Assembly (NCBI GenBank): GCA_041674285.1
Contig: JBAYVZ010000004.1
Location: forward strand, 21,913 to 85,912
Direction: 5' to 3'
Origin: Minisyncoccota bacterium
Lineage (GTDB): Bacteria; Patescibacteriota; Minisyncoccia; Phycocordibacterales; UBA9973
DNA: 64,000 bases
Shown here: piece after piece, positions 4,348 through 39,408 of the stretch
Layout of the letters: each line of letters starts with the position of its first letter
How positions within the stretch are numbered: position 1 is the stretch's first letter
Position numbers and translations under genes: made by a program
Notes under the pieces: generated by a model
Databases searched by the model: none
Seen by the model: only the letters and a program-made list of their open reading frames with translations
Told to the model about the DNA's origin: nothing

Positions 4348-4468
4348 CCCGTTAGAAGTCATTTATGTCAGATCACGCACGGGAATAAATATTATTTTTT
4401 GAGTTATATTTTGATTTTATTATTTATAATTATGTACGATAATCTAAAGATTATCTACTTCTAACGGG
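4348..4468. repeat. Palindrome-bounded element, copy A: 12-bp perfect terminal inverted repeats CCCGTTAGAAGT / ACTTCTAACGGG enclosing a 97-bp AT-rich core with an internal 7-bp-stem/TAAA-loop hairpin; the 3' arm abuts the ftsK ATG
   Basis: 4348-4359 cccgttagaagt; 4457-4468 acttctaacggg; ATG of ftsK at 4469. Internal hairpin gataatc-taaa-gattatc at 4438-4455. Related copies at 22561-22677, 39291-39408 and 20736-20805; solo arm at 38027-38036. Confidence 0.7.
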
Positions 4469-6709
4469 ATGGCAAAAAAAGACATTGAAGATGAATTTGA
4501 AGACGATGAAGAATTCGAAGATGACGCTCCCATCCGCAGAAATTCCAGTAACGGAAAGAGGAAACCAGGGCCCAAAAAAGGATCAAAGCATCGCAGAAAA
4601 GTCGAACTAAAAGATGAAACCCGACAAAGTATTTGGGGTGTAGTTTTTTTTGTTTTCGCAATATTAATAATATTATCAATTTTTCACATAGGAGGTATCG
4701 CAGGTGATTTCTTGATGCAAGTATTAGGATCGTTCCTAGGCATTGGATACTACTTGCTCCCCGTAGTTTTAGGAGTACTCGGCGTATCATTTATGAGACG
4801 AGGCAGGCCAGAAGTTGCTACTCTGCATGCGATAGTTGGAGCTACTCTCATACTCTCTGTATTAGGTATTTGCGACATCACAGCTAACGGCGCAGGAGAA
4901 TCTACAAATCTCATATGGGGTGGATACCTAGGTAGTATCGTCGCATGGCCATTCATAAAATTATTCCGCGAGATCGGAGGCATCCTAGTCCTAGGAACTG
5001 TACTGATTGTATCCCTACTCGTACTCTTTGACGAGCGCCCAAACCTCATGCAAATCTGGGACAAGATAGTCGCATTCTTCAAGCAAGATATTCGCATAGA
5101 AAACAGTAATCAAGAATCTACCGCAGTAGAAGAAAACGAAGCAGAAGATTCTGCTCCTTTGAAAAAGATAAAACCACTAGAAGAGGAGTATGCGGAGACA
5201 GAGGAAGAGATGGAGCTAATAGAAAAACCTTTACCAAAATCCAAAAAATTTGTATCAAAAGCTTACACACCTCCCCCACTAACTCTCCTAGAAAAAGATA
5301 GCGGAAAGGCAAATGTCGGAGACACAAAATCAAACGTAAATATCATACAAAAAACTCTATTGAATTTTGGTATCCCAGTGGAGATGGACGAAGTAACAGT
5401 TGGACCTACTGTTACTAGATACGCACTCAAACCCGCTCAGGGGGTAAAGCTATCTCGTATAGTAGGACTCCAAAATGACCTAGCCCTATCTCTCGCTGCT
5501 CACCCTATACGTATCGAGGCACCTATCCCAGGTAAATCTCTAGTAGGTATAGAGATCCCAAACAAGGCAAAATCAACAGTCGGAATGGCGACGCTCCTAG
5601 CAGACGACAAGTTCCAAAACGCCCCAAAGCCATTAATGATTGCGTTGGGTCGAGGACTCTCTGGCAAGGCCCTATTCGGCAACCTAGCCAAGATGCCTCA
5701 TGCACTTATCGCTGGAACTACAGGCTCAGGAAAATCAGTCACAATCCACTCTGTCATAGTGTCTCTGTTATACAGGAATGGCCCAGAAGATTTACGATTT
5801 ATCATGGTGGATCCAAAGCGCGTAGAGCTCACCCTTTACAACAAGATCCCTCACCTACTCACACCTGTAATCACAGACCCAAAGAAGACAATCCTAGCCC
5901 TCAAATGGGCAGCAAAAGAGATGGACCGTCGATATGACCTGCTAGAGTCTCATTCTGTTAAAGATATTACCAGTTACCACGAAAATATCCTGGCAAAAGA
6001 CAAGAGTGGTGAATTGGAGCGTATGCCGTATATAGTCATCATTATCGATGAGTTGGCAGATATTATGCAGACATACCCAAGAGAGCTCGAGAGCGGTATC
6101 GTACGCCTCGCTCAGATGTCTCGTGCTGTCGGTATACACCTCATACTATCTACTCAGCGCCCATCTGTGAACGTCATCACAGGTCTCATCAAAGCTAATG
6201 TCCCTACTCGTATTGCCCTCCAAGTAGCATCCCAGATTGACTCTCGTACAATTCTAGATCAAGCAGGAGCTGAAAAATTGCTAGGTGCCGGAGATATGCT
6301 ATACGCAGGCGCAGAGATGAGTCAGCCAGAGCGTCTACAATCAGCATTCATATCAGAAAATGAAGTGAAGAAGGTGGTAGAATACCTAAAAGATGCATAT
6401 ATGGACGAATTACCAGATACTATCGAGCTATCTGGTTCGATAGAAAATGGCAACAACCTATTCAACGGCAGTCTGACAGATGAAGGTGGCGATGATGACC
6501 TATATGAAGACGCGAGGCAAATAGTGATTGAAACTGGAAAAGCCTCTACCTCATACCTACAGAGAAAGCTAGGAGTCGGATACGCTCGTGCAGCAAAACT
6601 GATAGATATGCTAGAAGACAGAGGTATAGTCGGTCCAGCCAATGGATCAAAACCTCGTGATGTATTAGAAAGACCAGTCGATCATATAGGTAGCGAAGAA
6701 CAAATCTAA
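4469..6709 (+). CDS. ftsK: DNA translocase FtsK/SpoIIIE
   Basis: N-terminal TM helices; Walker A AGTTGSGKSVTIHSVIVSLL, motor domain, and C-terminal gamma (winged-helix) domain YLQRKLGVGYARAAKLIDMLEDRGIVGP. Confidence 0.92.
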   Translation: MAKKDIEDEFEDDEEFEDDAPIRRNSSNGKRKPGPKKGSKHRRKVELKDETRQSIWGVVFFVFAILIILSIFHIGGIAGDFLMQVLGSFLGIGYYLLPVVLGVLGVSFMRRGRPEVATLHAIVGATLILSVLGICDITANGAGESTNLIWGGYLGSIVAWPFIKLFREIGGILVLGTVLIVSLLVLFDERPNLMQIWDKIVAFFKQDIRIENSNQESTAVEENEAEDSAPLKKIKPLEEEYAETEEEMELIEKPLPKSKKFVSKAYTPPPLTLLEKDSGKANVGDTKSNVNIIQKTLLNFGIPVEMDEVTVGPTVTRYALKPAQGVKLSRIVGLQNDLALSLAAHPIRIEAPIPGKSLVGIEIPNKAKSTVGMATLLADDKFQNAPKPLMIALGRGLSGKALFGNLAKMPHALIAGTTGSGKSVTIHSVIVSLLYRNGPEDLRFIMVDPKRVELTLYNKIPHLLTPVITDPKKTILALKWAAKEMDRRYDLLESHSVKDITSYHENILAKDKSGELERMPYIVIIIDELADIMQTYPRELESGIVRLAQMSRAVGIHLILSTQRPSVNVITGLIKANVPTRIALQVASQIDSRTILDQAGAEKLLGAGDMLYAGAEMSQPERLQSAFISENEVKKVVEYLKDAYMDELPDTIELSGSIENGNNLFNGSLTDEGGDDDLYEDARQIVIETGKASTSYLQRKLGVGYARAAKLIDMLEDRGIVGPANGSKPRDVLERPVDHIGSEEQI

Positions 6710-6710
6710 T

Positions 6711-7094
6711 ATGACATCAACTATCAAAAAAAGATCAGTGAAGTGGTGGGTGGGGACAGGGCTATGTATGGCTCTGTTCCTCTCTATCTCTGTATATTCA
6801 TATGCAAAGATGCGAGTCGTGATAAATGGAGTCAAAGTAAAGGCAGAGATAGAAAAAACATCTGAATCCCCCCTTGCCTTCATAAAAGGAAATGCGAGGA
6901 ATGCCATATATATCAGCCTAAATGGTAGAGAAATTTTTATAGACAAGGACGGCACATTCAAAGAGCCTATTGCCCTACTAGACGGCCTGGGTGTTGTCAC
7001 CATAGAAGCTCAAGACAAATTCGGTAATACCTCAAAAAAGCAATTCCAAGTTGTATATAAAGACAATCAAAAAGTCGCATTATTAGAAAAGTAA
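6711..7094 (+). CDS. Hypothetical membrane-anchored protein (single N-terminal TM), probably co-transcribed with ftsK
   Basis: Starts 2 nt after the ftsK stop. N-terminal hydrophobic segment WWVGTGLCMALFLSISVY. No family recognised. Confidence 0.3.
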   Translation: MTSTIKKRSVKWWVGTGLCMALFLSISVYSYAKMRVVINGVKVKAEIEKTSESPLAFIKGNARNAIYISLNGREIFIDKDGTFKEPIALLDGLGVVTIEAQDKFGNTSKKQFQVVYKDNQKVALLEK

Positions 7095-7215
7095 TACAAA
7101 ATTTTTAATTACAAATTTTTAATTTTTAAATAATAAACAAATGTTTTAATAAATTAATTCATTTAAACATTATTTATAAAATTTTTAAATTATAAAATTA
7201 CAAAATTATAATTTT

Positions 7216-8262
7216 ATGCAAAAGAAAGCAAAGAAAGAACCAAAGACAACAGGCAGTGCGATAGAAGATACAATCAAGTCTATCCAGACTAAATTCGGTG
7301 AAGGTGCCATCATGACACTCGGAGAGACAGCAAAGGTAGATGTGAATACTATATCCACTGGATCAGTGGGATTGGATATGGCGCTAGGCGTCGGTGGACT
7401 ACCCCGTGGACGTATAATCGAGATATTTGGACCAGAGTCATCTGGTAAGACTACTCTTGCCCTACACGTAGTAGCAGAAGCCCAGAAAACTGGCGGTGTA
7501 TGTGCGTATATCGACGCAGAACACGCTATGGACCCAGATTACGCAGCAAAGCTCGGAGTAAAGATAAATGAGCTCCTAATCTCTCAGCCAGACACTGGAG
7601 AGCAGGGTCTAGAGATCACAGAGAGTCTAATACGCTCTGGCAAGATCGACGTTATAGTCATCGACTCTGTAGCAGCACTCACTCCAAAGGATGAGATCGA
7701 GGGAGATATGGGTCAGTCACACGTAGGTAAACAAGCTCGTCTAATGTCTCAAGCACTAAGAAAGCTCACGGCAATCGTCGCCCATTCAAAGACTGTCGTT
7801 ATATTCATAAACCAGATCCGTATGCAGATCGGTATCATGTTCGGTAATCCCGAGACTACTCCAGGTGGAAAGGCTCTAAAATTCTATACATCTGTACGTC
7901 TTGATATTCGTCGTATCGCCCAGATCAAAAAAGGTGAAGACGTAGTAGGATCTCGTACTCGCGTAAAGGTGGTCAAGAACAAGGTCGCTGCCCCATTCAA
8001 ACAGACAGAATTCGACATACTGTACGGCGAGGGCATCTCTCGTGAGGGTGAGATCATCGCCCTAGGTGAAAAGCTAGGATTAATCGACAAAGCAGGCGCA
8101 TCATACTCTATGAAGAACAAGGAGGGTGAAAAGGTACCTATGGGTCGTGGATACGATGCTACTCGCGTATGGCTACGTGAGAATAAAAAGGTAGCTGATG
8201 CCCTACTCAAAGAGATCAAATCTCGTTTCAATGAAATCCAGATAACCAGCGCAGGAGAATAA
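7216..8262 (+). CDS. recA: Recombinase RecA
   Basis: [59 protein letters not shown] is canonical RecA (Walker [10 protein letters not shown]). Confidence 0.95.
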
Positions 8263-8377
8263 GACAGTTATAAAGTTGAAAGTTTATAAAGTGTAAAGAA
8301 TTAGACTTTTAGACTTTATTTTGATATATTCTCAGTAGTTTACTTTATAACTTTTAACATTAAGACTTTATAACTCT

Positions 8378-8965
8378 ATGGCAATGCTAGAATACAGCGA
8401 TATACGCACAGGAAAGATTATTATCCACGAAGAGGAGCCTTGTTTGGTGGTGGACAACCATGTTGCCCGCACTCAACAGCGCAAGCCTCAGAACCAAGTA
8501 AAGCTCAAGAGTCTACTATCTGGACGCACATGGAATACTACATTCCACGCTTCAGACAAGGCAGACGAGGCCGAGATTAGTAAAAAAGAGGTAAAGTTCC
8601 TATTTGCAAACAAAGGTGAATACTGGTTCTGTGATCCAGAGAATCCAAAAGACCGATTCCAATTAGCAGAGAGTGTCATCGGTGATCAGATAAAGTATCT
8701 CCAACCAAATGAGAATACAACTGCAATCTCTTGGAACAATGAAGATGATGAAGAGCAGATAATCAGTATAAAGCTCCCAGTCAAGATGGAATTCATCATC
8801 AAAGACTGCCCTCCTACTATCAAGGGTGCCACAGCTAGTGGTGGAAACAAGATCGCAGTATTGGAAAATGGTACTACAGTCAATGTCCCCCTATTCCTAA
8901 ACCCAGGCGAAAAAATCCGTATCAATACAGAGACTGGCGAATACGTAGAAAGAGTCCAATCGTAA
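8378..8965 (+). CDS. efp: Translation elongation factor P
   Basis: ~190 aa, three-domain EF-P-like layout: N-terminal KOW-like segment with a basic loop (VARTQQRKPQNQVKLKSLLSGR), then two OB-like domains. Length and position (after recA) fit. Confidence 0.75.
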   Translation: MAMLEYSDIRTGKIIIHEEEPCLVVDNHVARTQQRKPQNQVKLKSLLSGRTWNTTFHASDKADEAEISKKEVKFLFANKGEYWFCDPENPKDRFQLAESVIGDQIKYLQPNENTTAISWNNEDDEEQIISIKLPVKMEFIIKDCPPTIKGATASGGNKIAVLENGTTVNVPLFLNPGEKIRINTETGEYVERVQS

Positions 8966-8973
8966 TATGACGC

Positions 8974-9012
8974 AAAAAAAATCCTGACCACTTGTGGTCA
9001 GGATTTTTTTAT
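8974..9012. terminator. Bidirectional rho-independent terminator (atcctgaccacttgtggtcaggat flanked by A- and T-runs) between efp (+) and the convergent 9013-9738 gene (-)
   Basis: 12-bp perfect stem with A8 upstream and T9 downstream. Confidence 0.6.
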
Positions 9013-9738
9013 TTAGAAAGCCATAACATGCTTATTGTCTTCAATAAACTTATTTATAGCTTCTTCAAAGTGTAAAGGAAAAACTACGTCACGGAAACCC
9101 ACGATCTCATTTGCAAATCTTGATAATTCCGAAATGTGCTCACGTAGAACATTTACTAAAATAACTTCATCCCCATAGTGGAGATAACCCTCATATGCGT
9201 AAAATAAATATTCCCATTTTTCCAAAGCTGGAAATAAATTAACTTCATAAGGATATTCTTCTCTCAAATAAGTAATGGTAGTAATCGCATCTTCGGGGAA
9301 AATACTAAGATATTCATCAGATTTGTGAGCAAACTGCAATAAATAAGCCTCCATAAAATGGATATACAGATTAAAATCTGTAAACATAAAATGTTGAATC
9401 TTTTGCTCAAAAGCACTATACTCCTTTAAATCATGGTGAGCTCTTTTGCTCACAACAGAGATATCCTTCTTTTGAAGCAAGAGCCCTTCAGGCAAGTCAT
9501 GCCACTGGAATGCATCCTTCATTAATTCTGTATTTAATTTAGGGTAATGCCGACTCTTGAGATTAAAAAGTACGGGTATTATCACCATAGATACAGAATG
9601 CTGGTGGTGCAGAGTCGTCTGCTTTCTTAATTCGGGGTTACGCTCTACGAACCTACCCCATCTAACAACTTCGTCCAATGGACACTGAGATGCGAGCCAT
9701 AGGTCGAACATCTGCTCGAAAATTGTGTTACTAATCAT
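9013..9738 (-). CDS. Hypothetical protein, possibly HD-domain phosphohydrolase-like
   Basis: LHHQHS ... WHDLPE spacing is reminiscent of HD-domain H...HD metal ligands. Weak; no other motif. Confidence 0.3.
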   Translation of the reverse strand: MISNTIFEQMFDLWLASQCPLDEVVRWGRFVERNPELRKQTTLHHQHSVSMVIIPVLFNLKSRHYPKLNTELMKDAFQWHDLPEGLLLQKKDISVVSKRAHHDLKEYSAFEQKIQHFMFTDFNLYIHFMEAYLLQFAHKSDEYLSIFPEDAITTITYLREEYPYEVNLFPALEKWEYLFYAYEGYLHYGDEVILVNVLREHISELSRFANEIVGFRDVVFPLHFEEAINKFIEDNKHVMAF

Positions 9739-9846
9739 TGTTTGTTTCCTCCTATTTTATTGTTTTTCTTTCATCTTACTAATCCCCCACAATAAGTCAA
9801 ATAGAATAAAAACACCCCTTTCGGGGTGTTTTTATGTGTAAAACGA

Positions 9847-10272
9847 TTAGTCTACGATTGTGATTCCTGCACTGCGAGCTGATCCTTCTACGATTTTCAT
9901 AGCACCTTCAATGTTTTTAGCATTTAGGTCTGGCATTTTCTTTTCTGCGATTTCACGAACCTGAGCACGTGTAATCTTTCCTGCCTTTGAAGTGTTTGGC
10001 TTTCCTGAACCCTTTTCTATACCTGCAGCTTTGAATATCAATCCTGCTACTGGTGGAGTTGTGACTGTGAATTCGTATGTACGATCATCAAAAACTGAGA
10101 TCTTAACACCTACGATATCACCTGCCATTGCCTGTGTTGCGGCGTTGAATTTTTGACAGAATTCAGCGATGTTTACACCTGCCTGACCGAGTGCGGGTCC
10201 TAATGGTGGCGCTGGAGTTGCTTTCGCAGCGGCAATTTGTAGTTTTACCTTTTTTGTAATTTTCTTTGCCAT
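9847..10272 (-). CDS. rplK: 50S ribosomal protein L11
   Basis: [46 protein letters not shown] is canonical L11. The ORF track adds 4 N-terminal residues (MYDY); the likely start is the MAKK Met at 10272. Confidence 0.92.
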
Positions 10273-10450
10273 ATAGTCATACAATTCTTAATTTTGTAAT
10301 TTTTAAATAATGCAAAAATGTCTAATTTTTAAACATAAATACATTATAAAATTATTTATAAAATTAAAAATTTTAAATTAAAAATTCTTAATGTTTTGAA
10401 GCTTTTTGCGTAACAGGTCTACTTTAGCATAAAAATGCTTATAGGTAAAG

Positions 10451-10999: not shown

Positions 11000-11075
11000 T
11001 GATTTATTAGTTTCTAGTAATTAGTTTCTAGTGACTAGAAAATAAAAACTAGATTTTAAATTAATTTAATAATAA

Positions 11076-11264: not shown

Positions 11265-11391
11265 AAATTGATTATATTACTCTTACTAAAAAACACCCCG
11301 CGGGTGTATGTAAATACATAATACGCCTTTTATCCCATAAAGTCAATATAAAGAAAAAACCTCCCAAATGGAGGTTTTTTTCTTTATGTAT

Positions 11392-12204: not shown

Positions 12205-12270
12205 AATCTTTAAAAGTTATATTATAGACATAAATTTCCTATTTTAAAACCATATAAAAAACAAAAAAAG

Positions 12271-13693: not shown

Positions 13694-13714
13694 TTTATTT
13701 TTATTATCTTACAA

Positions 13715-18982: not shown

Positions 18983-19000
18983 ACAGGCATTATAGCATAA

Positions 19001-20296: not shown

Positions 20297-20832
20297 ACTC
20301 CTTTACTTGAAAAACTTGTAGCTATTTGATCAGCGCGTTCATTGTAGATATGACCGCTGTGGCCTTTTACTTTTTCCCATGAGAGCTTCCCTTGATATCC
20401 ACGTACGAGGCCGATGAGTTCTTGCCATAGGTCCTGGTTCAAGACTGGCTTTTTATTGGCAGTTCGCCATCCATTTTTTTCCCAGTTTGCCACCCAAGAA
20501 TTTACGCCACCTAATACATAGGCAGAATCAGCGCAGATATTCACCTCGGGGAAACTTTTTAGACTAGATAAATATCGTAGCGTCTCAATCACGCCTTTTA
20601 ACTCCATTCGATTGTTTGTAGTGGCTTTTTCGTATCCACCGAGCTCGTATACTATTTTATCCCCTTCTACCATGACAGCACCGTACCCTCCAGGACCAGG
20701 ATTCCCTAGTGAAGATCCGTCTGTATATACATCAACCCTGTTAGAAGCCGCCCCCGATAGTAATCGGGTGCTACGGTCACCTTGGGGCGACCTGCTTCTA
20801 ACAGGGTCAATTTTTTTTATATTCATATTCAT
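20278..20832 (-). CDS. rnhA: Ribonuclease HI, with a ~32-aa N-terminal extension that is encoded by a palindrome-bounded element
   Basis: VDVYTDGSSLGNPGPGGYGAV...ELKGVIETL...ICADSAYV...WEKVKGHSGHIYNERADQIA is a canonical RNase H1 fold. There is no in-frame ATG/GTG/TTG between the element and VDVYTDG, so translation probably starts at ATG 20832. Confidence 0.85.
   Translation of the reverse strand: MNMNIKKIDPVRSRSPQGDRSTRLLSGAASNRVDVYTDGSSLGNPGPGGYGAVMVEGDKIVYELGGYEKATTNNRMELKGVIETLRYLSSLKSFPEVNICADSAYVLGGVNSWVANWEKNGWRTANKKPVLNQDLWQELIGLVRGYQGKLSWEKVKGHSGHIYNERADQIATSFSSKGVCELVK
20736..20805. repeat. Palindrome-bounded element, copy D (13-bp perfect IR CCCTGTTAGAAGC / GCTTCTAACAGGG, GC-rich 44-bp core), lying inside the 5' coding region of rnhA
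   Basis: 20736-20748 ccctgttagaagc and 20793-20805 gcttctaacaggg. The arms differ from copies A-C by a single inserted T. Confidence 0.6.
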
Positions 20833-20862: not shown

Positions 20863-22557
20863 TTAAACTATGTCAACAATACGCAAACGGAGCTCTGTGC
20901 GCCCTGCAAAGAAGCTTTTTTCAAAGGTAGCTAGGAGATTTATTCTATCCCCATCATTTAATTTAAAAGTCTCGCGAGTTTTAAAGAATGCGATAGCTTT
21001 AATTGTTCGTCGTCTTGAATCTAGAAATACAAGTTCAAGATGATTTTTTTCTTTTCCAAATTCTTTTAATCCAGCGATTTGAATATTTTCAAATTTGAAA
21101 ATTGGCTTTGGATTACCCATCCCAAACGGTGCCATCTTTTCTATAACTTTATAATTATCATTATTTACATCATCAAGAGTGATTGATGCATCTATCATAT
21201 ACGAATTATTATTTTCTTCTGTGTCTTCTGTTTTATTTGAAATAATATTTGAGTGTACAATATTTAATCTCTCTTCAAGGAAATGAACCTCTGTGTGAGA
21301 GACAGCGAATCCTCCTGCCCCCACATGACCTCCGAATTCAAGTAAGCTATTTTCAGGTAATCCGGTCATCAGTTCTACAACATTTACAGACCCCCATGTA
21401 CGACAAGATCCACGAATAGTATCACTACCCTCTTGTCCCCAGACGAATACTGGCTTTTTGTATTCTTCAGCAATTTTAGATGCCACGAGTCCGAGCACTC
21501 CTACTCGCCAATCAGGATTACCTATCACTATTATTTCTTTTTCTTCTCGGGCTTGCATCTTGTGCTTCACATCTTTCATAATGTGCGCAACTATTGTTTT
21601 TCTCTCTGTATTTATTTTGTCCAGATGAGATGCGAGAGTTTTTGCTTGTACGAGATCCGTAGTTGAGAGAAGTTCGAATGCACGCATCGGACTATCCATA
21701 CGACTGGCAGCATTGAGCTTTGGTGCAATAGTAAAACCGACATCATCTTCAATGATATTTTTTGGATCTACATTCGCCTTCTTTAACAATTCAGCCAGTC
21801 CTGGACGACGAGCTTTTTGTAAAACTTTCAAACCATAAAATGCTAATACTCGATTCTCATGTAGCAGTGGCACTTGATCAGCAATAGTAGCGAGTCCTGC
21901 CATATCCAGTAACCATTTCTCCCAGCCATTTTGAATATTCCAATACTCTCCGTATTTTTTTATTAATCCTTGTACGAGCTTGAATGCGAGTCCTGCCCCA
22001 CAGAGCATATCATCCGGATAGCTACAATCACTCTGTTTTGGATTGATGATCGCATAAGCCTTTGGTATATGCTCGTGCGGAAGATGGTGATCTGTGATGA
22101 TCACGTCTATACCATTGGCCGTAGCGGTCGCCACCTCTTCAACTGCTGTGATACCTAGATCAAAAGTGATGACGAGTTTTACATCTGTCTTTATAAATTC
22201 ATCTACGGCTTCTTTGTTTAAACCATACCCTTCGAGGTGTCTGTCTGGTATATATACTAGGAAATTCTCATATCCGATCTTTGTAAAAAAATCGTGCATT
22301 ATCACAGCAGCAGGGATACCATCGCAATCATAATCACTGTAAACGACTATTTTTTCTTTTGCTTCTACTGCTTCGAATATGCGTACACAGGCACGCTCCA
22401 TATCTTTTAATAGATACGGATCATATATATCAGTCTCATAATTAGGATTTAGGAACTTGTCGGCATCAGATGCAGATATTCCCCTATTTCTCAAAAGTAT
22501 CTCTAGTAGTTCGGCATGGTTTGGCATACCTGCAATTGTAACATATAATAGATACAT
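20863..22557 (-). CDS. recJ: Single-stranded-DNA-specific exonuclease RecJ
   Basis: DHH motifs VVYSDYDCDGIPAAVIMHDFF and ITDHH; DHHA1 GGHVGAGGF; C-terminal OB domain. Confidence 0.9.
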   Translation of the reverse strand: MYLLYVTIAGMPNHAELLEILLRNRGISASDADKFLNPNYETDIYDPYLLKDMERACVRIFEAVEAKEKIVVYSDYDCDGIPAAVIMHDFFTKIGYENFLVYIPDRHLEGYGLNKEAVDEFIKTDVKLVITFDLGITAVEEVATATANGIDVIITDHHLPHEHIPKAYAIINPKQSDCSYPDDMLCGAGLAFKLVQGLIKKYGEYWNIQNGWEKWLLDMAGLATIADQVPLLHENRVLAFYGLKVLQKARRPGLAELLKKANVDPKNIIEDDVGFTIAPKLNAASRMDSPMRAFELLSTTDLVQAKTLASHLDKINTERKTIVAHIMKDVKHKMQAREEKEIIVIGNPDWRVGVLGLVASKIAEEYKKPVFVWGQEGSDTIRGSCRTWGSVNVVELMTGLPENSLLEFGGHVGAGGFAVSHTEVHFLEERLNIVHSNIISNKTEDTEENNNSYMIDASITLDDVNNDNYKVIEKMAPFGMGNPKPIFKFENIQIAGLKEFGKEKNHLELVFLDSRRRTIKAIAFFKTRETFKLNDGDRINLLATFEKSFFAGRTELRLRIVDIV

Positions 22558-22560
22558 GAT

Positions 22561-22677
22561 CCCGTTAGAGATTTGTTTGTAATATTTCTAATTATTGGGA
22601 TAATTTAAATTATCGTCGCATTTTTTACTAGATATTAATTAGATACGGTAATGTAAACATTACCTATCTCTAACGGG
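22561..22677. repeat. Palindrome-bounded element, copy B (IR CCCGTTAGAGAT / ATCTCTAACGGG) filling the divergent recJ / HIT intergenic region; both start codons abut its ends
   Basis: 22561-22572 and 22666-22677. HIT ATG at 22678; recJ ATG (minus strand) at 22555-22557, 3 nt from the left arm. Internal hairpin ggtaatg-taaa-cattacc. Confidence 0.7.
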
Positions 22678-22992
22678 ATGAATGAAAATTGTATTTTTTG
22701 TAAGATTATAAGCAATGAAATCCCATCATCAAAAGTATATGAAGATGATAAATTCTTGGCTTTTTTAGACATCCATCCTGTTTCTAATGGGCACACCCTG
22801 TTAATACCCAAATCACATCATGAATGGATGGTTAATGCTCCAGATGAATTAATATCAGAAATATACAAAATGGCAAAAAAATTGATGATAGAGATCAAAG
22901 AGAAAAATAAATGTGAATATGTAAAACTATCTGTTATAGGTAAAGACGTGCCACACTTCCACATACACCTAATACCTGAATATAATAAATAA
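22678..22992 (+). CDS. HIT-family (histidine triad) nucleotide hydrolase
   Basis: CIFCKII...HPVSNGHTLLIPKSH...VPHFHIHLIP (HxHxHxx triad). Confidence 0.88.
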   Translation: MNENCIFCKIISNEIPSSKVYEDDKFLAFLDIHPVSNGHTLLIPKSHHEWMVNAPDELISEIYKMAKKLMIEIKEKNKCEYVKLSVIGKDVPHFHIHLIPEYNK

Positions 22993-24909: not shown

Positions 24910-24938
24910 TTATCTATTATAGCACAATTAAGGCGTTT

Positions 24939-33482: not shown

Positions 33483-33498
33483 AATTTAATTATACATT

Positions 33499-34725
33499 TT
33501 AGACTCTTTTATACAAGAATCGAAATACTATACCCGATATGACTATAGTTATCGCAGCTATTAGTAGCGGTGTAGTAGAGGCTAGCGCTGCAGCGATGAA
33601 TCCAGAGAGTATTGCCGGGATAGCTTGAGCTAGAGCCTGGACAGAAGAACTAATTCCCATTATTTCCCCTCTTTGATCTGCTGGTGCTGATTTTGAAAGT
33701 AGACTATTTACATTGGCCATAGTGAGTCCTGTAAACATAGAAAAGAATGGAGGGATCAATAATAATTGCCAAGAATACTGTGGCAAGAAATATGCGAGAA
33801 TCATAATACCTGCCCCCATCAACGAATAACTAAGTATCTGATATTCACTAAATCTTTTTGAAAAAGCGCGAGTGAGCACTGCCTGAGTAAACACACTCCA
33901 TAGGCCTACGTATGCAAAAAAATCTCCGATATTTCCCTGAGTAAAAGAAAATTTATTAATTAAAAATACCCCAAAGAAAGTAGTGAAGAATGTAAACCCA
34001 CCAAAAAATAAAAAGTTTGTAGCAAACAGTATACTCATACCTTTCATCTTCATTGCACGTTTTATATTTGAGATTGATTTGCCCCAAGTCAGTTCTTCTT
34101 TACGTAGATTTTTATTTGTCTCAGGTACAAGGAAAAGTACAGACAGCATATTTATAAATGCCAAAAATGCTGCAAAATAAAATGGGACAGCAGCACTAAA
34201 CCAAGACACGATTGATGGATCAGAAAGCTTACCCCCTATATATGGACCAAATATAAACCCCAGACCAAATGCAGCACCCAGCATACCAAAGTTTTTTGCA
34301 CGATTATCTGGACTTGATACATCCCCTATCATAGCCTGAGCAATAGATATATTTCCACCTGTAATACCGTCAAAAAATCTTGAAGCAAATAATAATGGGA
34401 TATTTTTTGTAATGATAGCCACAGCGAACAATATATAAGACAGGGCCGTCCCCAAAAGTGCAATACTGAGAATTTTCTTTCTTCCGTATTTATCAGACAA
34501 CTGTCCGAGTATAGGAGTAGCAAGGAATTGACCGATTGGATACACAGCAATCAATAGCCCTAGTAACATATACCCCTGATTAAGAGACGTGCCAAATGGA
34601 AGCATGTATTCCGATGAGAACGGATTAGCAAATAACTGAGGAATAACCGGGATCAGTATCCCCACCCCGAGCAAGTCAATAAATACAGTAAGGAAAATTG
34701 TAATCAAAATTTTATTTTTAAACAT
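33499..34725 (-). CDS. MFS transporter (drug:H+ antiporter-like)
   Basis: 12 TM; motif A-like GxLSDKYGRKK between TM2 and TM3. Confidence 0.85.
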   Translation of the reverse strand: MFKNKILITIFLTVFIDLLGVGILIPVIPQLFANPFSSEYMLPFGTSLNQGYMLLGLLIAVYPIGQFLATPILGQLSDKYGRKKILSIALLGTALSYILFAVAIITKNIPLLFASRFFDGITGGNISIAQAMIGDVSSPDNRAKNFGMLGAAFGLGFIFGPYIGGKLSDPSIVSWFSAAVPFYFAAFLAFINMLSVLFLVPETNKNLRKEELTWGKSISNIKRAMKMKGMSILFATNFLFFGGFTFFTTFFGVFLINKFSFTQGNIGDFFAYVGLWSVFTQAVLTRAFSKRFSEYQILSYSLMGAGIMILAYFLPQYSWQLLLIPPFFSMFTGLTMANVNSLLSKSAPADQRGEIMGISSSVQALAQAIPAILSGFIAAALASTTPLLIAAITIVISGIVFRFLYKRV

Positions 34726-34788
34726 TGTTCTACTGTATCACAAAATTAAACACTACGCATAAAAAACTCACCCGGATGGGTGAGTTTT

Positions 34789-35334
34789 TTATGCTCTTGA
34801 GATGTATTTATAATTCCAAAGTATCAACATTAGGAATACTCCCATTGACAGTGCCATAACAGGGATAGATACATAAGAGAATTCATATACATATCGCACT
34901 GCACATGACACCTCGGTAGCACTACCCGTAGCACAAGCGAGATTTGACGCTCCTCCATGTTCTACATATATATGGAATAGTGATATTATGCTACCGATAA
35001 ATGCGAGAACTAGTGCGTAGTCCACTATCACCTTTTCCCTCTTCCAGAGCTCCATACCAAAAAGAATAACTTGTGGATAGATAAATATTCTCTGCATCCA
35101 ACACAATTCACAAGCTGGAAATCCAATCACATTTGAATAGAATAAACTAATTGCCATAGCTCCAAATGCAGTTAGGAATCCAATTATAAATGTGTAGTCG
35201 TGCAAAAATTTCAAAAACACATTATCTTTTTTTCTAAAAAACAAAAGTGCTCCAAAAATAGTAAAGCAAAAAAGCTGTATGAAAATCGTCCCTAGAGACA
35301 ATATATAATTCAATGTAGGTACGTAAGTAGGCAT
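34789..35334 (-). CDS. DsbB/BdbC-family disulfide-bond formation protein
   Basis: 4 TM; periplasmic loop GFPACELCWMQRIFIYPQ (CxxC followed by WxQR, typical of BdbC/DsbB); second Cys pair in the distal loop. Confidence 0.7.
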   Translation of the reverse strand: MPTYVPTLNYILSLGTIFIQLFCFTIFGALLFFRKKDNVFLKFLHDYTFIIGFLTAFGAMAISLFYSNVIGFPACELCWMQRIFIYPQVILFGMELWKREKVIVDYALVLAFIGSIISLFHIYVEHGGASNLACATGSATEVSCAVRYVYEFSYVSIPVMALSMGVFLMLILWNYKYISRA

Positions 35335-35335
35335 A

Positions 35336-35923
35336 TTATTGAGGTAGAGTAAACTTTATCTGTTCGGCCAAGAATTCAAGAGGAATCTCTCCTACTGCCA
35401 TAGCACTGCTATCAAAATTCCAAACATCACCATTTTGAACTGGATCTTTTTCTGACTTTATTGAGAATTTATAATTTGAAAATACCCAAACTTTTGCGTA
35501 CTCTGAATGTATATTTGCACAGACAGCAGGCTCCCCCTCAATCTTTGCCCCAGTAGGACTAGGAGCACAAGCAAGAGGCTTTGGGTCGGAAGATTTCAAT
35601 GTTATACCATTCTTGAATGTCCAAGATGGGTAACTCTCTACTTTATTAGCCTTGCACTCATTCGTCTGACCTCGTGAATCAGGGGTAGAACATTCTACAT
35701 AAGGTATATACTTTTTAGAGCTACCAAAAAGAGCTTTTGTAGCCTGACAATGCGGACACCAAAATGCCCCATAGAATACTGCACCCTCAGATTTGAGAGC
35801 TTGTGCAAAAGCGTCATACTTTCCAGGTTTTGCAGTTTTTTCAACAATAAAACCAACACCCATAATCAATATAATAATAGCAACAACAGACACGATGAAT
35901 ATATTTTGTTTTGTTTTAAACAT
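35336..35923 (-). CDS. Membrane-anchored thioredoxin-fold thiol-disulfide oxidoreductase (DsbA-like; motif type usually fused to VKOR)
   Basis: FYGAFWCPHCQATKALFG matches the Trx domain partnered with bacterial VKOR (YGAYWCPHCQ). N-terminal TM. Overlaps DsbB by 1 nt, so probably co-transcribed. Confidence 0.7.
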   Translation of the reverse strand: MFKTKQNIFIVSVVAIIILIMGVGFIVEKTAKPGKYDAFAQALKSEGAVFYGAFWCPHCQATKALFGSSKKYIPYVECSTPDSRGQTNECKANKVESYPSWTFKNGITLKSSDPKPLACAPSPTGAKIEGEPAVCANIHSEYAKVWVFSNYKFSIKSEKDPVQNGDVWNFDSSAMAVGEIPLEFLAEQIKFTLPQ

Positions 35924-35949
35924 AAGTTAATTATACCAAAATGATAGAT

Positions 35950-37995
35950 TTAAAAGAAATTAAAAATTAAACCAAAAAATGTTGTAATATTATGCCACAC
36001 AACCCTTGTGATTGCGGGTATTTTAGATACAAACGGTGCAGAACTCGCACTTGCTACTAGGTTATTTTTTGCTGGCACAGGACTATCCACAATATCATTC
36101 CTAACGACAGGTGTTATCTTTTTTACTTCTTTATTTGGTTTTTTTACTTCTTCTTTTTTTATTTCTTTTTTAGCTTCTTGAATGACTGGAGTAATCGGTA
36201 TAATTTTTTCTTGAACAACAGGAATGATAACAGCAGGAATAATTTCCACTTTATTTTCACCTGAAGTTTTTACTATTTCTGTGACTGCAGGCTTCTCAAA
36301 GTCAGACAGTATGTCTATCCATGATTTGAGTGATTCTGCTGTTAGCGCATAAGAGGTAGCCCAGACACGTGAATCTACATCGCTACCTATATCCCCTACA
36401 CCACCATCACTTTTCTGTTGTGATGATACATAATTTCTCGCATTAGACAAAGCAGATGCAAATTCAGATCCGAGTGATAGTGCCTGTATAGCCCAGCTTG
36501 TAGAAGATACATTGTCCCCTATACGCCCATCAGAAGATTGATTGCTGGTTAGATAAATATAAGCTTTGTCTATATAATCTGAGACTCCATTTTTATTTTT
36601 AAAAGGAGACAATGCCATTATCGCAGCAGATGTCATATCAACACTATTATCCCAAGACCCATTTGAGTATTGTTTAGTTTTTATAAAATCAATAGTATTG
36701 GCGATTATCTCATCTTTATATGAATACCCTGCTTTTTTCAAAACGATCAAGCCAAAGATGTCATCATTATCCAGGTTCGCATCCCCTATCTGAACTCCAT
36801 CAAATTTTCCTACAATTTTTGAGATATAGTCTACGTTTGTACCGCTATATGGATTTATACCGAGAGCCATCAGGGCCATCGCATGGCGCTCATTGTCAGT
36901 CACAGTGCTTGATGTAAAATTATTTGATGTTAGATATACAGCGATGCTTTCAATCAGAGCTGAGTCACCAGTAGATCCAATAGCGACAGCCCCCCAGTCC
37001 GTATACAATGATGTACCCAAAGATCCATCTGATTTTTTATTGGCATTTAAAAAAACTACTGCATTTTCTTTTGAGAAAGTTACTACAACAGGAGCACTAT
37101 TTGAACCACCAGAAGACACAGGCTCCGATACAGACACAGAATAAGATGGAAAATAATAATCCTCTGATACTCCTATATTGTATGCACCTGGACTTGAGAA
37201 AGAAAGATTTGCACTCCCCATATCATCTACCAACGTAGTTGATATTACGGTTGGATTCCATGGATCATTCGGATTTGTCTGGGTTATGCCGATATTCACC
37301 CCGGTACGCACCACCCATGTATCGTCTGTATAATTATAAGATTTTGCCTGTGCAGTTATGGACCCAGTAGTTGTGATTGTATTAGTATCTAAGTCTACCT
37401 TGTATGGACTACCAAAATACAAACCAATATTTTCTCCTCCTGAGAGAACAGTCGCATCGATACTTGTCCAAGGGCTAGCACCTCCTACTACATACTGCCA
37501 ATTATCACACACTTCTCCGGATGAATTTATATTTAAACATTTCAAATAAAAAGAAGAAAAAGAATCATAGTACTGCAGACTAGAAAGTGAGAAAGAATCT
37601 TCTGATTGATCGAGAGTGTATAGCACACCGAGCACACTCCGAGAATTCACAGAGTGAGATACTCCCACATTATCTAGTATATCTATATTCCCTTCTGGAG
37701 GTAGAGCAATATCCCCACTATACACAACGTCCGCACCATTACGAATAAATATATTTTCATACAAAATTGGTGCAGGTTCTTCAGCTTGATTTTGCTCTAC
37801 CGGAGGCTGTTCTTCTGTGGGGATTTCTTGTACCGGAGACTGCTCTTCTAGTGGGGCTGGCGTTGAATTCTGAGTCTCTTCTACTGGCGGATTTCCAGTA
37901 TTCTGATCTGTCTGAGTAGAATCTTCTGCATATACAAAAAATCCTGAGAAAATAAAACCGAGTATTATTAAGATAGAAAATATATTTTTTTTCAT
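35950..37995 (-). CDS. Secreted protein with Pro/Glu/Thr-rich linker and C-terminal prenyltransferase/squalene-oxidase-type alpha/alpha-toroid repeats (likely start at MKKNIFS, position 37995)
   Basis: Signal peptide MKKNIFSILIILGFIFSGFFVYA. Repeats KQYSNGSWDNSVDMTSAAIMAL / NQSSDGRIGDNVSSTSWAIQALS / QQKSDGGVGDIGSDVDSRVWATSYALT fit the QxxxDGSW-type toroid repeat. The 16-codon N-extension in the track ORF contains a solo element arm (CCCGTTAGGA). Confidence 0.6.
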   Translation of the reverse strand: MKKNIFSILIILGFIFSGFFVYAEDSTQTDQNTGNPPVEETQNSTPAPLEEQSPVQEIPTEEQPPVEQNQAEEPAPILYENIFIRNGADVVYSGDIALPPEGNIDILDNVGVSHSVNSRSVLGVLYTLDQSEDSFSLSSLQYYDSFSSFYLKCLNINSSGEVCDNWQYVVGGASPWTSIDATVLSGGENIGLYFGSPYKVDLDTNTITTTGSITAQAKSYNYTDDTWVVRTGVNIGITQTNPNDPWNPTVISTTLVDDMGSANLSFSSPGAYNIGVSEDYYFPSYSVSVSEPVSSGGSNSAPVVVTFSKENAVVFLNANKKSDGSLGTSLYTDWGAVAIGSTGDSALIESIAVYLTSNNFTSSTVTDNERHAMALMALGINPYSGTNVDYISKIVGKFDGVQIGDANLDNDDIFGLIVLKKAGYSYKDEIIANTIDFIKTKQYSNGSWDNSVDMTSAAIMALSPFKNKNGVSDYIDKAYIYLTSNQSSDGRIGDNVSSTSWAIQALSLGSEFASALSNARNYVSSQQKSDGGVGDIGSDVDSRVWATSYALTAESLKSWIDILSDFEKPAVTEIVKTSGENKVEIIPAVIIPVVQEKIIPITPVIQEAKKEIKKEEVKKPNKEVKKITPVVRNDIVDSPVPAKNNLVASASSAPFVSKIPAITRVVWHNITTFFGLIFNFF

Positions 37996-38048
37996 ATTAT
38001 TATTTATATTTAAATTGCGATCGCGGATCCTAACGGGATTCATATCCT

Positions 38049-38570
38049 TTAATTAATAAAGCCTTCTCTCTCCCATCGCACAGCATCACCCTCTTTCAAA
38101 AAATTCTTAGATATACCCACAGATGCTTTTTTATCATTTAAATAATACACCCAATATTTACCCTCATTACCTTGTAAACCATTGATACTATCTACAAACA
38201 TACCCATACCACTATAGTCTTTTGACGTAAAAGTAAAATATTTATTTTGAGTAGATAAATCTACCATTGATTGGTATATACTCACCCCTTCTGAGGCTTT
38301 GGATTCGTAAATTTTATCTTCAACGATTATTTTGATATTTATCTCATTTTTATCTATCTCTGGAATTATTTCTTTTACTTCTGAAATTTTATAAGTAACT
38401 TTTTTGGAACTTTCAGTTTTTCTCGGTACTAGCTTTGGGGCCTCTATTTTAGGTGTAGTATTCACTACTGATTCAGAGTTGCTAACTTTTTTAGAATACT
38501 GATAAAAGAAAGCAATAGACAGTATGACTAGGACAGCGAACAAAAATATTTTAATATATTTATTTTTCAT
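38049..38570 (-). CDS. DUF4430-domain protein (transcobalamin/intrinsic-factor beta-domain-like), membrane-anchored
   Basis: N-terminal TM; C-terminal ...GMFVDSINGLQGNEGKYWVYYLNDKKASVGISKNFLKEGDAVRWEREGF matches DUF4430 (GxxWxYxVNG...G...Y.L.dGD.I.W.Y). Confidence 0.6.
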   Translation of the reverse strand: MKNKYIKIFLFAVLVILSIAFFYQYSKKVSNSESVVNTTPKIEAPKLVPRKTESSKKVTYKISEVKEIIPEIDKNEINIKIIVEDKIYESKASEGVSIYQSMVDLSTQNKYFTFTSKDYSGMGMFVDSINGLQGNEGKYWVYYLNDKKASVGISKNFLKEGDAVRWEREGFIN

Positions 38571-38768
38571 AATAAATTAATGCATACTAAATAATAAAAA
38601 CTCCTGCACGGGCAGAAGTTTTTATATCCTTTTTTACAAAGAGATTTCCTGCTCGGGTGAACAATTTATATATTAAGATCGGACTTGTCTCTTGCGAGCT
38701 TTACCGTTGCGGCACAGTGGAGGAATATGACCTCACTTCCAAACATATAAACTTAAATTTTAAATGAA

Positions 38769-39290
38769 TTATACTCGGACAACTTCTGGAATAACAACGA
38801 CTGCAGTACTTTCCTTTTCTACCCATCTTTCAATCATTGGTGATAGAACTATAGCAAAGGATACATTTGAAAGCAAATGAATAGCCGTGAATGGTATCTG
38901 ACCTACTATTGCCGCCATGAATGATTGCCCAAAGAATAGTGGACCCATAGTCAAACCAGTAACAACATCAAATACGATAGTACTTACAAATGCGAATTTA
39001 GCATAGTTCTTCCATCCTGTACGATTCTGGAAATAGAAAGATGCAGCAAGACCAACTAATCCATAGGCAATACCTGCAAATAGTGTCCACACACCAAATC
39101 CTACTGTAAACATGTCGTACACAGCCACAGACAAGAAACCAAATAAAAATGAATACAATCTACCGTATGTACGAGACAACGGCATAACCATAGCCATCAG
39201 AGGCTCCAGATTTGGAGCCCTAAATGGTAGCAGTCGAACCAGTAGTCCAACTACAAACAGAGATATAATTTTGATTGGGTTTTTCTTCAT
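38769..39290 (-). CDS. Small polytopic membrane protein, ECF-transporter S-component-like (candidate cobalamin-specific CbrT-type)
   Basis: 173 aa, 5-6 TM, no soluble domains. Adjacent to DUF4430 and the toroid protein, which is a common ECF S-component context. Assignment by context and topology only. Confidence 0.4.
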   Translation of the reverse strand: MKKNPIKIISLFVVGLLVRLLPFRAPNLEPLMAMVMPLSRTYGRLYSFLFGFLSVAVYDMFTVGFGVWTLFAGIAYGLVGLAASFYFQNRTGWKNYAKFAFVSTIVFDVVTGLTMGPLFFGQSFMAAIVGQIPFTAIHLLSNVSFAIVLSPMIERWVEKESTAVVVIPEVVRV

Positions 39291-39408
39291 CCCGTTAGAA
39301 GTAGATACTCTTTAGAGTATCGTACATAATTTAACTAATAAACTCGAATATAACTAATTTATTCAAATAAAATCCGTAGCTAGAATAACATGCATGACTT
39401 CTAACGGG
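39291..39408. repeat. Palindrome-bounded element, copy C (IR CCCGTTAGAAGT / ACTTCTAACGGG) between nrdJ and the ECF-S-like gene; the left arm abuts that gene's ATG
   Basis: 39291-39302 and 39397-39408. Read on the minus strand it ends ...gatactc-taaa-gagtatc-t-acttctaacggg-ATG. Apart from compensatory stem changes it is nearly identical to the 3' end of copy A. Confidence 0.7.

Follow-up and report, generated by a model that had tools for sequence, protein, structure and literature searches.

The 64,000-nucleotide stretch of DNA described here (positions 21,913 to 85,912 of contig JBAYVZ010000004.1, from a Minisyncoccota bacterium), referred to as the window, contains four copies, designated A to D, and one truncated relic of a short element bounded by inverted repeats. 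Copies A, B and C adjoin the start codons of ftsK, of a HIT gene and of a gene for an ECF-S-like protein, respectively, and copy D lies within rnhA. Insertion with duplication of the start codon is shown by comparison with orthologous loci in relatives. The elements most probably (probability about 0.78) constitute a non-autonomous foldback family resembling MITEs (miniature inverted-repeat transposable elements) and REPINs, associated with start codons and serving as an RNA leader after insertion; the start-codon association is unusual and apparently undescribed. Insertion is at (A)TGR(R) sites, the great majority of them gene start codons, and generates a duplication of 4 nt in this genome and of 5 nt in most others. 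Of the two ATGNN copies, one thereby stays beside the promoter and ribosome-binding signals of the host gene, and the other regenerates an intact gene after the 3′ arm of the element.

The features of the window copies are as follows, in window coordinates, where the arms are the terminal inverted repeats, which would pair as helix P1 in RNA, and P3 is an internal hairpin.

4343..4472, plus strand: copy A with both duplications; left ATGG 4343-4346, T 4347, 5′ arm 4348-4359, P3 hairpin 4438-4455 (GATAATC-TAAA-GATTATC), T 4456, 3′ arm 4457-4468, ftsK start ATGG 4469-4472.
22556..22681, plus strand: copy B with both duplications; left ATGA 22556-22559, T 22560, 5′ arm 22561-22572, P3 22647-22664 (GGTAATG-TAAA-CATTACC), T 22665, 3′ arm 22666-22677, HIT start ATGA 22678-22681.
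39287..39413, minus strand: copy C with both duplications; left ATGA 39413-39410, T 39409, 5′ arm 39408-39397, P3 39321-39304, 3′ arm 39302-39291, start of the ECF-S-like gene ATGA 39290-39287.
20732..20810, plus strand: copy D, a short GC-rich variant; element 20736-20806, arms CCCTGTTAGAAGC and GCTTCTAACAGGG, TCAA flanks 20732-35 and 20807-10.
37991..38043, minus strand: truncated relic ("solo arm"); left ATGAA 38043-38039, T 38038, degenerate 5′ arm CCCGTTAGG 38037-38029.

Re-reading at all five places upheld the arms that the first-pass annotation had described as perfect inverted pairs, except that copy D, given there as 20736-20805, extends to 20806 and measures 71 nt. Copies A, B and C, of 121, 117 and 118 nt, have a GC content of 27–31% and D one of 61%, with 38% for the window. 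The three longer copies share the layout noted earlier, namely 5′ arm, AT-rich core, 7-bp stem, TAAA, stem, T, 3′ arm and ATG (on the minus strand in C), and an arm is indeed flush against the starts of ftsK (4469), HIT (22678) and the ECF-S-like gene (39290). What had been overlooked is that ATGN is repeated directly on both sides of A, B and C; the duplicated sequence is ATGG in A, ATGA in B and C, and TTGA (TCAA on the plus strand) in D. The exact 12-mer ACTTCTAACGGG occurs four times in the 64 kb, as the two inverted pairs of A and C, and B and D are also inverted pairs, with the same two changes present in both arms of each. The exact 8-mer CTAACGGG occurs seven times in the window, as three pairs and the solo arm, and arm matches with up to three mismatches are at chance level, so that the signal resides in the exact, paired copies. 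An 8-mer that the arm was said to have in common with the tRNA-Arg gene is a chance resemblance, depending on a triplet, ACT, that is variable in the family (ATC, GCC, ATT, GTC and others). About 7% of gene starts in the window carry an element (4 of ∼60 genes, comprising the three intact copies and the truncated relic).

Copy D lies inside rnhA, a minus-strand gene relative to which it is reversed, and adds 75 nt, or 25 codons, in frame after codon 8, ahead of the catalytic DVYTDG motif of RNase HI. The solo arm, formerly placed at 38027-38036, is an arm but does not stand alone; it is the 5′ part of a truncated copy with a left ATGAA-T junction at 38038-43, which keeps ∼30 nt of core (∼40 nt beyond the left junction) and has lost its 3′ half including the 3′ arm. 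The real start of the gene behind it is ATGAA 37995-37991 (minus strand), and the relic resembles the 5′ parts of the elements in L032 and L069 (L-numbers are labels of the loci and contigs compared). The relic arm (38029-38037) differs from L128 (∼4258-4270) at 5 of 13 positions, with almost identical flanking 100 nt, a divergence that may reflect fast decay or ectopic conversion of an orphan arm; the L128 copy is the more decayed of the two.

Relatives were reached via homologues of RecJ, FtsK and the ECF-S-like protein, which led to syntenic contigs. Empty orthologous sites for A, B, C and D were found in relatives at 77–96% protein identity, and each filled site carries a 4-nt duplication. 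Site A is empty, with TAAATTTATGGCAAAAAAAG uninterrupted, in L123 (FtsK 96% identical) and also in the more distant L125 and L126. Site B is empty in L127 and L120 (RecJ 95% identical in each) and in L121 (RecJ 82%), where TTTTCATTCAT, or AATTTTCATTCAT or an equivalent, runs directly into GTATCTATTATATG and the window has the element and a second TCAT; site D is empty (ATGAAAAAAATTGATGTATATACAGACGG) in L120 and L127, and the window has there 71 nt and a second TTGA. Site C is empty in L129, a 77% relative that reads AAACTTATGAAGAAAAACC, and is a 4-nt gap by gene calls in L130, a 72% relative. In L128, a 97% relative, site C is filled in the same orientation by an element differing at 1 of 118 nt. 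The reverse case is provided by L028, a syntenic Saccharibacteria contig that is filled at the starts of a pgk-like and a pilC-like gene, at both of which the window has a bare ATGAA, so that empty and filled states are contrasted at six independent sites (A, B, C, D and two in L028). The MITE-like mobile palindromic element that the first-pass annotation had listed among its three readings is borne out by these sites, with duplications of 4–5 nt for A–D and the two copies in a relative, and the presence/absence polymorphism with target-site duplications that it had envisaged in related genomes is observed. The elements are mobile now and their copies also decay; by the sequence comparison, A, B and C are recent insertions. 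In relatives without element B, gene callers lengthened HIT to 134–140 residues.

The wider distribution of the family was established by scanning one genome per species with the pattern TCCCGTTAGA-N85-115-TCTAACGGGA, and all family counts given here are among the matches listed. At least 119 loci with paired arms 105–135 bp apart (elements of 103–133 bp), most of them at start codons, were found among species-representative genomes, confirming that a pattern search yields further copies. Hosts of the listed loci are mostly Patescibacteria, including Saccharibacteria, many Parcubacteria/Paceibacterota lineages, Levyibacteriota, Kazan and Kerfeldbacteria. A few listed loci are in Omnitrophota, Sedimentisphaerales, Elusimicrobia and WOR-3 bins, some on contigs >100 kb; matches outside the candidate phyla radiation (CPR) are in metagenome bins. 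Conservation of the arms is partly set by the search pattern, which fixes the first and last 9 nt of P1. The layout common to the family is ATG-N(1-2)-T-CCCGTTAGA…core…TCTAACGGG-ATG-N(1-2)-gene, in which the start codon and the following 1–2 nt recur as a direct repeat at either side. Of 138 listed elements, 109 have one ATG facing outward, flush with an arm, and another facing inward 1–3 nt from the opposite arm. Direct repeats in 125 oriented elements are an exact 5-nt ATGNN in 89, 4 nt in 9 and 6 nt in 2 (100 of 125 with 4–6 nt), and between the left repeat and CCCG there is an invariant T. The orientation relative to the gene, judged by the CCT/TCT mark, is forward in 84 listed elements and reverse in 6. 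Tandem arrays with one common ATGAA, such as those in L084 and L014, show repeated insertion at one codon.

The flush ATG opens an open reading frame (ORF) of at least 100 aa in 97 of 116 listed cases, compared with 14.5% for random ATGs, and is thus a real gene start. The two nucleotides that follow it are AA, GA or AG in 108 of 125 elements, whereas this class makes up about one third of ATG-start genes in the window by our own count, which indicates a real target bias for ATGRR. Outside long ORFs only ∼20% of ATGRR sites are ORF starts, whereas at least 84% of copies are located on one. Both mechanistic recognition and strong selection for the site where the duplication repairs the damage fit this preference, which could be partly due to selection. 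The genes concerned are functionally diverse across the family, and the enrichment for nucleotide metabolism seen in the first-pass annotation does not extend to it; in a Pfam scan of ten downstream genes picked at random from the listed loci nine were matched, namely to a response regulator, fmt, an exonuclease III-like protein, a release factor, a β-CASP nuclease, SecD, UDG, a DsbA-like protein and DnaJ. In an Omnitrophota bin (L119, ∼2590-2625), minimal arms separated by four nucleotides (AACCCCGTTAGAAAT-TACA-TTTCTAACGGGGTT) are nested in a full-length element, and arm pairs merely 20–80 bp apart occur at other places too.

The covariation in arms and internal stem that had been noted for the window copies holds across the family. 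P1 positions 10–12 are paired in 97–99% of the 125 listed elements compared with 66–74% in shuffles, and a pair count on 19 elements, picked by a sequence criterion unrelated to pairing, found 98.1% of cells paired compared with 84.5% in shuffles and 39–49% with slid partners. Both-side changes were seen in these 19 elements at nine pairs, comprising six of the seven P3 pairs and three P1 pairs, and three degenerate copies show compensatory changes within the otherwise invariant arm (CAC/GTG, GCTAG/CTAGC and, in D, CCCTG/CAGGG). A conserved T, left unpaired, occupies position 13 counted from the 3′ end. In about half of the listed copies P3 forms a local hairpin just 5′ of this T, usually preceded by (T)AC and with 36 distinct stem sequences; of these hairpins 51 are gene-proximal and 12 gene-distal. 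Other subfamilies use this 3′ strand differently, pairing it with an extended 5′ arm rather than forming P3. The folds predicted for A–D are three-way junctions composed of P1, a variable P2 and P3, with z-scores from -3.7 to -8.3 (A, -3.7; B, -5.2; C, -5.4; D, -6.7 and -8.3), and the junction nucleotides AC-G…C-U are conserved. In the RNA the arms would form a closing helix, P1, of 12–13 bp, the last pair of which would use the A of the gene AUG, and P3 would be placed one U ahead of the P1 3′ strand; the helix with the real AUG at its foot has a predicted energy of ∼-30 kcal/mol. The three-way junction is thus a predicted RNA fold that is supported by covariation.

Transcription of the element appears to depend upon the promoter of the host gene. 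In 109 listed elements TAnnnT is present 6–11 nt upstream of the left ATG 59 times, compared with roughly 4 per spacing elsewhere, and the extended form TGnTAnnnT is present at a spacing of 6–10 nt 21 times; there is no positional -10 signal inside these elements. The corresponding feature in the window is the promoter upstream of copy B:

22521..22549, plus strand: native HIT promoter; TTGGCA-17 nt-TATAAT, 11 of 12 consensus matches, the box ending 6 nt before the left ATG.

The predicted HIT transcription start is the left ATG copy at 22556, from which it follows that the HIT leader would comprise element B in its entirety. Relatives with an empty site have this -10 box too, 6 nt ahead of the HIT ATG. 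In copy A the -10 box is 14 nt before the left ATG. It is proposed that a host promoter, often with a leaderless-type TGnTAnAAT box 6–9 nt before the ATG, would transcribe AUGNN-U, the element and the gene. The left ATG copy, the whole element and the gene would then lie on one RNA with both arms present, as inferred from host promoters upstream of the 5′ arm and the lack of a positional -10 signal within the element, which agrees with the earlier supposition that the arms share a transcript. The earlier proposal of an RNA leader in which the 3′ arm is sequestered by the 5′ arm is therefore retained in part: the promoter position and the covariation of the pairing favour it, but insertion polymorphism among close relatives and the unrelated nature of the genes show that it is not a conserved regulatory leader of those genes. 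A promoter borne by the element was rejected, there being no positional -10 enrichment inside it and no sense-strand promoter predicted in A or C, where only weak antisense matches (TAGATA-17-CATAAT) appeared; B has a weak sense match (TTGTAA-16-GATAAT with TG, 9 of 12). Use of the 3′ arm as a -10 box for a leaderless gene start was likewise rejected, the arm being unsuited by sequence inspection.

The promoters of recJ and HIT also bear on the claim that the ATG at 22555-22557, beside copy B, is the start of recJ, which is probably incorrect. A TGtTACAAT -10 box lies 7 nt before ATGCCAAAC (∼22525-22527) in the window and in relatives, RecJ homologues are mostly ∼10 residues shorter than a start at 22555-22557 implies, and L127, where the site is empty, already has this CATG, which means that the element did not create that ATG; the recJ start is most likely near 22525-22527. 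At the empty HIT-recJ site (L120 9960-10000; L127 1600-1645; window counterpart 22521-22560) the divergent genes are ∼30 bp apart, and their promoters overlap back-to-back and are of leaderless type, with TATAAT-N6-ATG on one strand and TACAAT-N7-ATG on the other. Many window genes have an extended -10 box, TGnTAnAAT, 6–7 nt before the ATG without a Shine-Dalgarno (SD) sequence (e.g., 18983-18997, 24910-24924, 35924-35938 and 51507-51521), and their transcripts probably lack a leader. Sites of GGAGG type precede a smaller number of genes, as upstream of 9738 and 47503. Upstream of ftsK, just before the -10 box, there is an imperfect hairpin (AAATCTAGCGC-TCAA-GCACTAGATTT; window 4287-4317, plus strand) that differs in sequence in the 96% relative L123.

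The frame entering the element from the left AUG is stop-free through the 5′ arm, which is read, after a 5-nt duplication and the T, as CCC GUU AGA (Pro-Val-Arg) and after a 4-nt duplication as xUC CCG UUA GAx; with the rare 6-nt duplications the left-AUG frame runs directly into UAG. In 36 of 109 listed copies the left-ATG ORF is open across the element (34–46 codons), compared with 7.9 in composition-preserving shuffles and 11–17 in the other five frames. Of these 36 ORFs, 25 end at a UAA in the 3′ arm 4 nt before the gene AUG, and the other 11 terminate within an AUGA overlap, at its UGA. The length of the element brings the frame to that UAA in 52 of the 109, to another frame in 32 and into frame with the gene in 25, none of the last being open. 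By its sequence, the arrangement UAA-4 nt-AUG or AUGA has the classic geometry of termination-reinitiation. It is proposed that initiation would continue at the upstream AUG copy and that ribosomes, on entering the 5′ arm from there, would melt P1 and expose the real AUG; in the roughly one third of copies whose upstream ORF spans the element and ends by the gene AUG, reinitiation would follow. In the window copies only the unmasking step could apply or, alternatively, SD-independent initiation as for many genes here. Such unmasking or coupling by the ribosome is the suggested route of gene expression, to which an endonuclease cut at the P1 foot that regenerates a leaderless mRNA may be an alternative. 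Two other routes were considered and rejected, namely an SD sequence brought beside the AUG across the helix, since an SD-like motif lies 0–3 nt before the left ATG in only ∼17 of 89 listed copies, and a conserved leader peptide, since only M-x-P-V-R is common, this is dictated by the arm, and the 4-nt duplications of the window shift the arm frame.

A tentative extension, which is possible although we would not wager on it, is that the elements are mobile leaders that home to start codons and rely on translation for their harmlessness, and perhaps for targeting, with the ribosome start opening the closing helix or handing over 4 nt before the ATG. If so, the family would represent a mobile element with a translational relay as its selected phenotype, conserved in Patescibacteria and beyond and converting leaderless genes to leadered ones, and it could be co-opted as a common post-transcriptional control point recognized by a conserved factor.

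The assignment to a MITE-like family rests on perfect inverted ends of 12–13 bp, a short core (elements of 103–133 bp; 71 bp in D) without an ORF of transposase size, target-site duplication, and empty and filled orthologous sites; all of the MITE features tested were found except a known parent element. Searches of Rfam 15 gave no match to the elements at gathering score, and at permissive E-values only generic hairpin (miRNA) models far below threshold; there was no pattern match in viral contigs and no BLAST match in plasmid and phage collections, on which grounds a phage or plasmid origin was rejected. No description of such an element in Patescibacteria or Saccharibacteria, or as REPIN/RAYT there, was found in the literature searched. 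The earlier remark that this is not a described element is in keeping with the outcome of the Rfam, plasmid, phage and literature searches. Complementarity to the anti-SD or 16S sequence, attC sites and dif/Xer sites were also considered for the conserved part of the arm, and by sequence none fits.

Several observations weigh against this interpretation. Neither the window nor 0.93 Mb of related sequence yielded an arm pair >280 bp apart, as would mark an autonomous copy, and the window ORFs scanned include no transposase domain. Copies A, B and C are recent but only 69–82% identical to one another, from which it follows that the source copies must be outside the window. A 10-bp terminus common to classes and phyla is unusual for a MITE, and its conservation is overstated since the search required it. 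As for start-codon preference, the duplications of ∼12 listed copies are not ATG (e.g., ACATA, ATAAA), and copy D is inserted at TTGA within a gene. The real AUG lies at the foot of P1, its A predicted to pair with the left-junction T/U, and is not preceded by an SD-like sequence. The upstream ORFs of the window copies end early, after 19 (A), 8 (B) and 16 (C) codons, so that termination-reinitiation cannot explain expression of ftsK, HIT and the ECF-S-like gene, and all of the RNA-level statements rest on prediction. Lastly, there is the matter of the mobilizing enzyme. Clustering of 746 neighbouring ORFs detected IS200-like Y1 (Y1_Tnp) genes in 6 of 119 listed loci, three of them within ∼1 kb of the element, with a rough expectation of 1–2 for a single-copy gene among these loci, but the Y1 genes in L048, L019 and L112, whose flanks are within the fetched loci, have perfect hairpins of their own, different from the arms, on both sides:

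L048, 3540-3560 and 4245-4265: TACAAGGTTCAACCTTGTA.
L019, ∼237-260 and 1010-1035: ACTTGGGTGC…GCACCCAAGT.
L112, ∼2260 and 2500: ACTTAGGTC…GACCTAAGT.

Such an arrangement is REP/RAYT-like and separate from the present element, and the Y1 family, which had been considered as the mobilizing enzyme by co-occurrence, was rejected because of these unrelated flanking hairpins. It is doubtful, although several features invite the comparison, that the elements are of the REPIN-RAYT type instead of DDE-type MITEs, that is, inverted doublets replicated via hairpins of single-stranded DNA, the transposase being a single-copy HUH enzyme (Y1, IS200-like) with its gene elsewhere in each genome. Their clean 4–5 nt target duplications argue against this; to our knowledge IS200/IS605 and REPIN transposition generates none. 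The architecture fits well, since REPINs too have two conserved inverted ends, a spacer of ∼70–110 bp and a hairpin in single-stranded DNA or mRNA kept by compensatory changes, and are non-autonomous with an enzyme acting in trans (PMC3116915). Compensatory changes even within the conserved arm, the excess of Y1_Tnp in the 8-kb loci and the failure to find an autonomous copy with these ends in 0.93 Mb point the same way. However, REPINs are scattered randomly in extragenic space (PMC3116915), whereas the present elements are located at start codons, the Y1 genes that could be read adjoin hairpins such as TACAAGGTTCAACCTTGTA in place of CCCGTTAGA arms, none of these three being a cognate gene bounded by the repeats of the element, and the arm has GTTAG instead of the GTAG or CGTC tag.

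An unlikely alternative is that the element is primarily a domesticated cis-regulatory RNA, the three-way-junction leader acting as a sensor or protein site (riboswitch, thermosensor, or target of a conserved RNA-binding protein or RNase) by which the cell would regulate translation of the gene that follows, and mobility being secondary; in one variant an endonuclease would cut the P1 foot and regenerate a leaderless mRNA. Such a role would suit the strong orientation bias, the presence of both arms on one RNA, the conserved junction nucleotides, the contrast between the proximal 9–10 bp of P1, which are conserved in sequence, and P3 and distal P1, which covary, and an internal (C)GGGA motif 20–40 nt from the 5′ arm that could replace the 3′ arm in pairing. 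It would also suit the near-identity of intact copy C to its counterpart in L128 when set beside the diverged relic arm. Arm conservation is, however, partly imposed by the search, the junctions of the predicted fold are too short for a typical ligand pocket, the elements have no Rfam match, and the downstream genes are unrelated. As expected of neither a riboswitch nor a conserved leader, the element is absent at orthologous sites in relatives at 77–96%, and its presence differs between relatives at 95–96% even at the essential ftsK.

That the arms are invertase sites flipping a core of ∼100 bp and thereby switching the gene behind it on or off, with recombination keeping them identical, is improbable. 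Perfect inverted repeats of 12–13 bp bounding a short segment by a gene start are what such a switch would show, both core orientations occur in the family (84/6 by the CCT/TCT mark and 51/12 by hairpin position), and homogenization by recombination could mimic covariation of the arms, but it cannot explain that of P3. Moreover, ∼100 bp is a very short segment for inversion, the core has no positional promoter signal, window C and its counterpart in L128, the sole filled pair of orthologous sites, are oriented alike, and the target duplications show arrival by insertion. The least probable proposal, the paired DNA operator of a nucleotide- and DNA-metabolism regulon put forward in the first-pass annotation, in which a regulator would bind both arms and loop the DNA, drew on window copies at ftsK, HIT/recJ and rnhA and beside nrdJ, on conserved arm sequences and on spacing confined to ∼103–133 bp, and can be dismissed because the family's downstream genes are diverse (including a glycosyltransferase-like protein besides the Pfam-matched set), the sites are absent from orthologous promoters in 95–96% relatives, D is inside a coding region, each arm is non-palindromic, and hairpin covariation has no role in an operator.

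The MITE/REPIN-like family preferred here shares features with several known systems. Integron attC sites are folded imperfect palindromes of 57–141 nt with core sites GTTRRR/YYYAAC and a variable, covarying interior. The core sites are alike (GTTAGA/TCTAAC here) but their order is inverted, 5′-GTTAGA…TCTAAC-3′ in the element and 5′-…YYYAAC…GTTRRR…-3′ in attC, and in contrast to attC the element has target duplications, belongs to no cassette array and lies upstream, not downstream, of genes, so that an attC identity is not supported. DDE transposons of the IS1380/piggyBac type, which we take to have CCC…GGG ends and a 4–5 bp duplication, offer a lead only, through the resemblance of TCAA followed by CCCTGTTAGAAG… in D to TTAA followed by CCCTAGAAAG… in piggyBac; the target here is ATGR(R), not TTAA, and there is an invariant extra T at the left junction. 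In mycobacterial MIRUs, which are intergenic repeats of operons, small ORFs overlap the flanking stop and start codons, suggesting translational coupling, to which the 36 of 109 listed copies with an ORF ending UAA-cggg-AUG or AUGA are a parallel, but MIRUs are direct repeats without terminal inverted repeats, palindromic arms or start-codon duplication. Translational bypass elements (phage T4 gene 60, mitochondrial 'byp') are stable structured inserts between identical take-off and landing codons, and in the present element, likewise, each foot of P1 carries the same AUGNN; nothing here points to hopping, and reinitiation or independent initiation is simpler.

Correia elements (NEMIS) duplicate TA and are known only from Neisseria. 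The element studied here differs in duplicating ATGN(N), in having a terminal 10 bp found across many classes and several phyla and a three-way junction with an oriented hairpin, and in having no known parent insertion sequence. Like it, Correia elements are MITEs, here of the kind co-transcribed with neighbouring genes, and share the features general to MITEs, namely ∼100–150 bp, terminal inverted repeats, a short duplication, no transposase gene, empty and filled sites and a long RNA stem-loop; they adjoin genes and affect their expression (PMC3184786). Rickettsia palindromic elements (RPE) are, at least in the summary given in that source, palindromic repeats in frame within coding genes that are tolerated as extra peptide (PMC3184786), which recalls the 25 extra codons of copy D in rnhA, although in-frame intragenic insertion is an exception in the present family (D only). 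The Neisseria REP2 repeat also lies immediately upstream of many ORFs, with internal stem-loops and expression signals up to the ATG; it is described with its own promoter, ribosome-binding site and ATG, and its 14 genes are co-regulated (PMC3184786), whereas the present elements have no positional promoter signal and no ATG of their own, the host ATG being duplicated instead. Functionally, the closest precedents are REP2 and the ORF fusions between MITEs and genes (PMC3184786).

What surprises is that the start codon is duplicated, that the family extends over several phyla and that one subclass would be translated through. Insertion at a start codon with the codon regenerated by duplication is an unusual route to tolerance; were the preference mechanistic, one would have to ask how translation starts could be recognized by a process at the DNA level. 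Patescibacteria genomes are very small and gene-dense and repeats are thought to be rare in them; a presence at ∼7% of starts would affect CPR annotation, and the upstream ORFs of the element are at risk of being called genes. Recent copies before essential genes (ftsK, pgk) offer natural settings in which to study initiation that is leaderless, SD-independent or by reinitiation, in organisms now becoming genetically tractable, and the insertion polymorphisms are usable as strain-typing markers.

Three other features of the window were observed. An adenosylcobalamin (AdoCbl, B12) riboswitch at 38639-38766 (minus strand) scores 50.5 bits, with an Rfam gathering cut-off of 50, and lies between the ECF-S-like and DUF4430 genes; a gene for a cobalamin-binding-like protein follows and the B12-dependent nrdJ is upstream, so that the neighbourhood looks like a cluster for B12 uptake and use. 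The fusA gene (EF-G; minus strand) is split into 47503-48342 and 46199-47503 by a one-base frameshift near ...GGATCAGCTCTAAGAACAAAGGAG... (∼47500-47530), for which the candidate explanations are an error of assembly, a pseudogene and programmed frameshifting; the relative L122 has an intact fusA of 713 residues. Adjoining the S12/S7/EF-G operon, at 49767-51506 (minus strand), is a gene for a Pif1-like helicase with a C-terminal HTH_40 domain.

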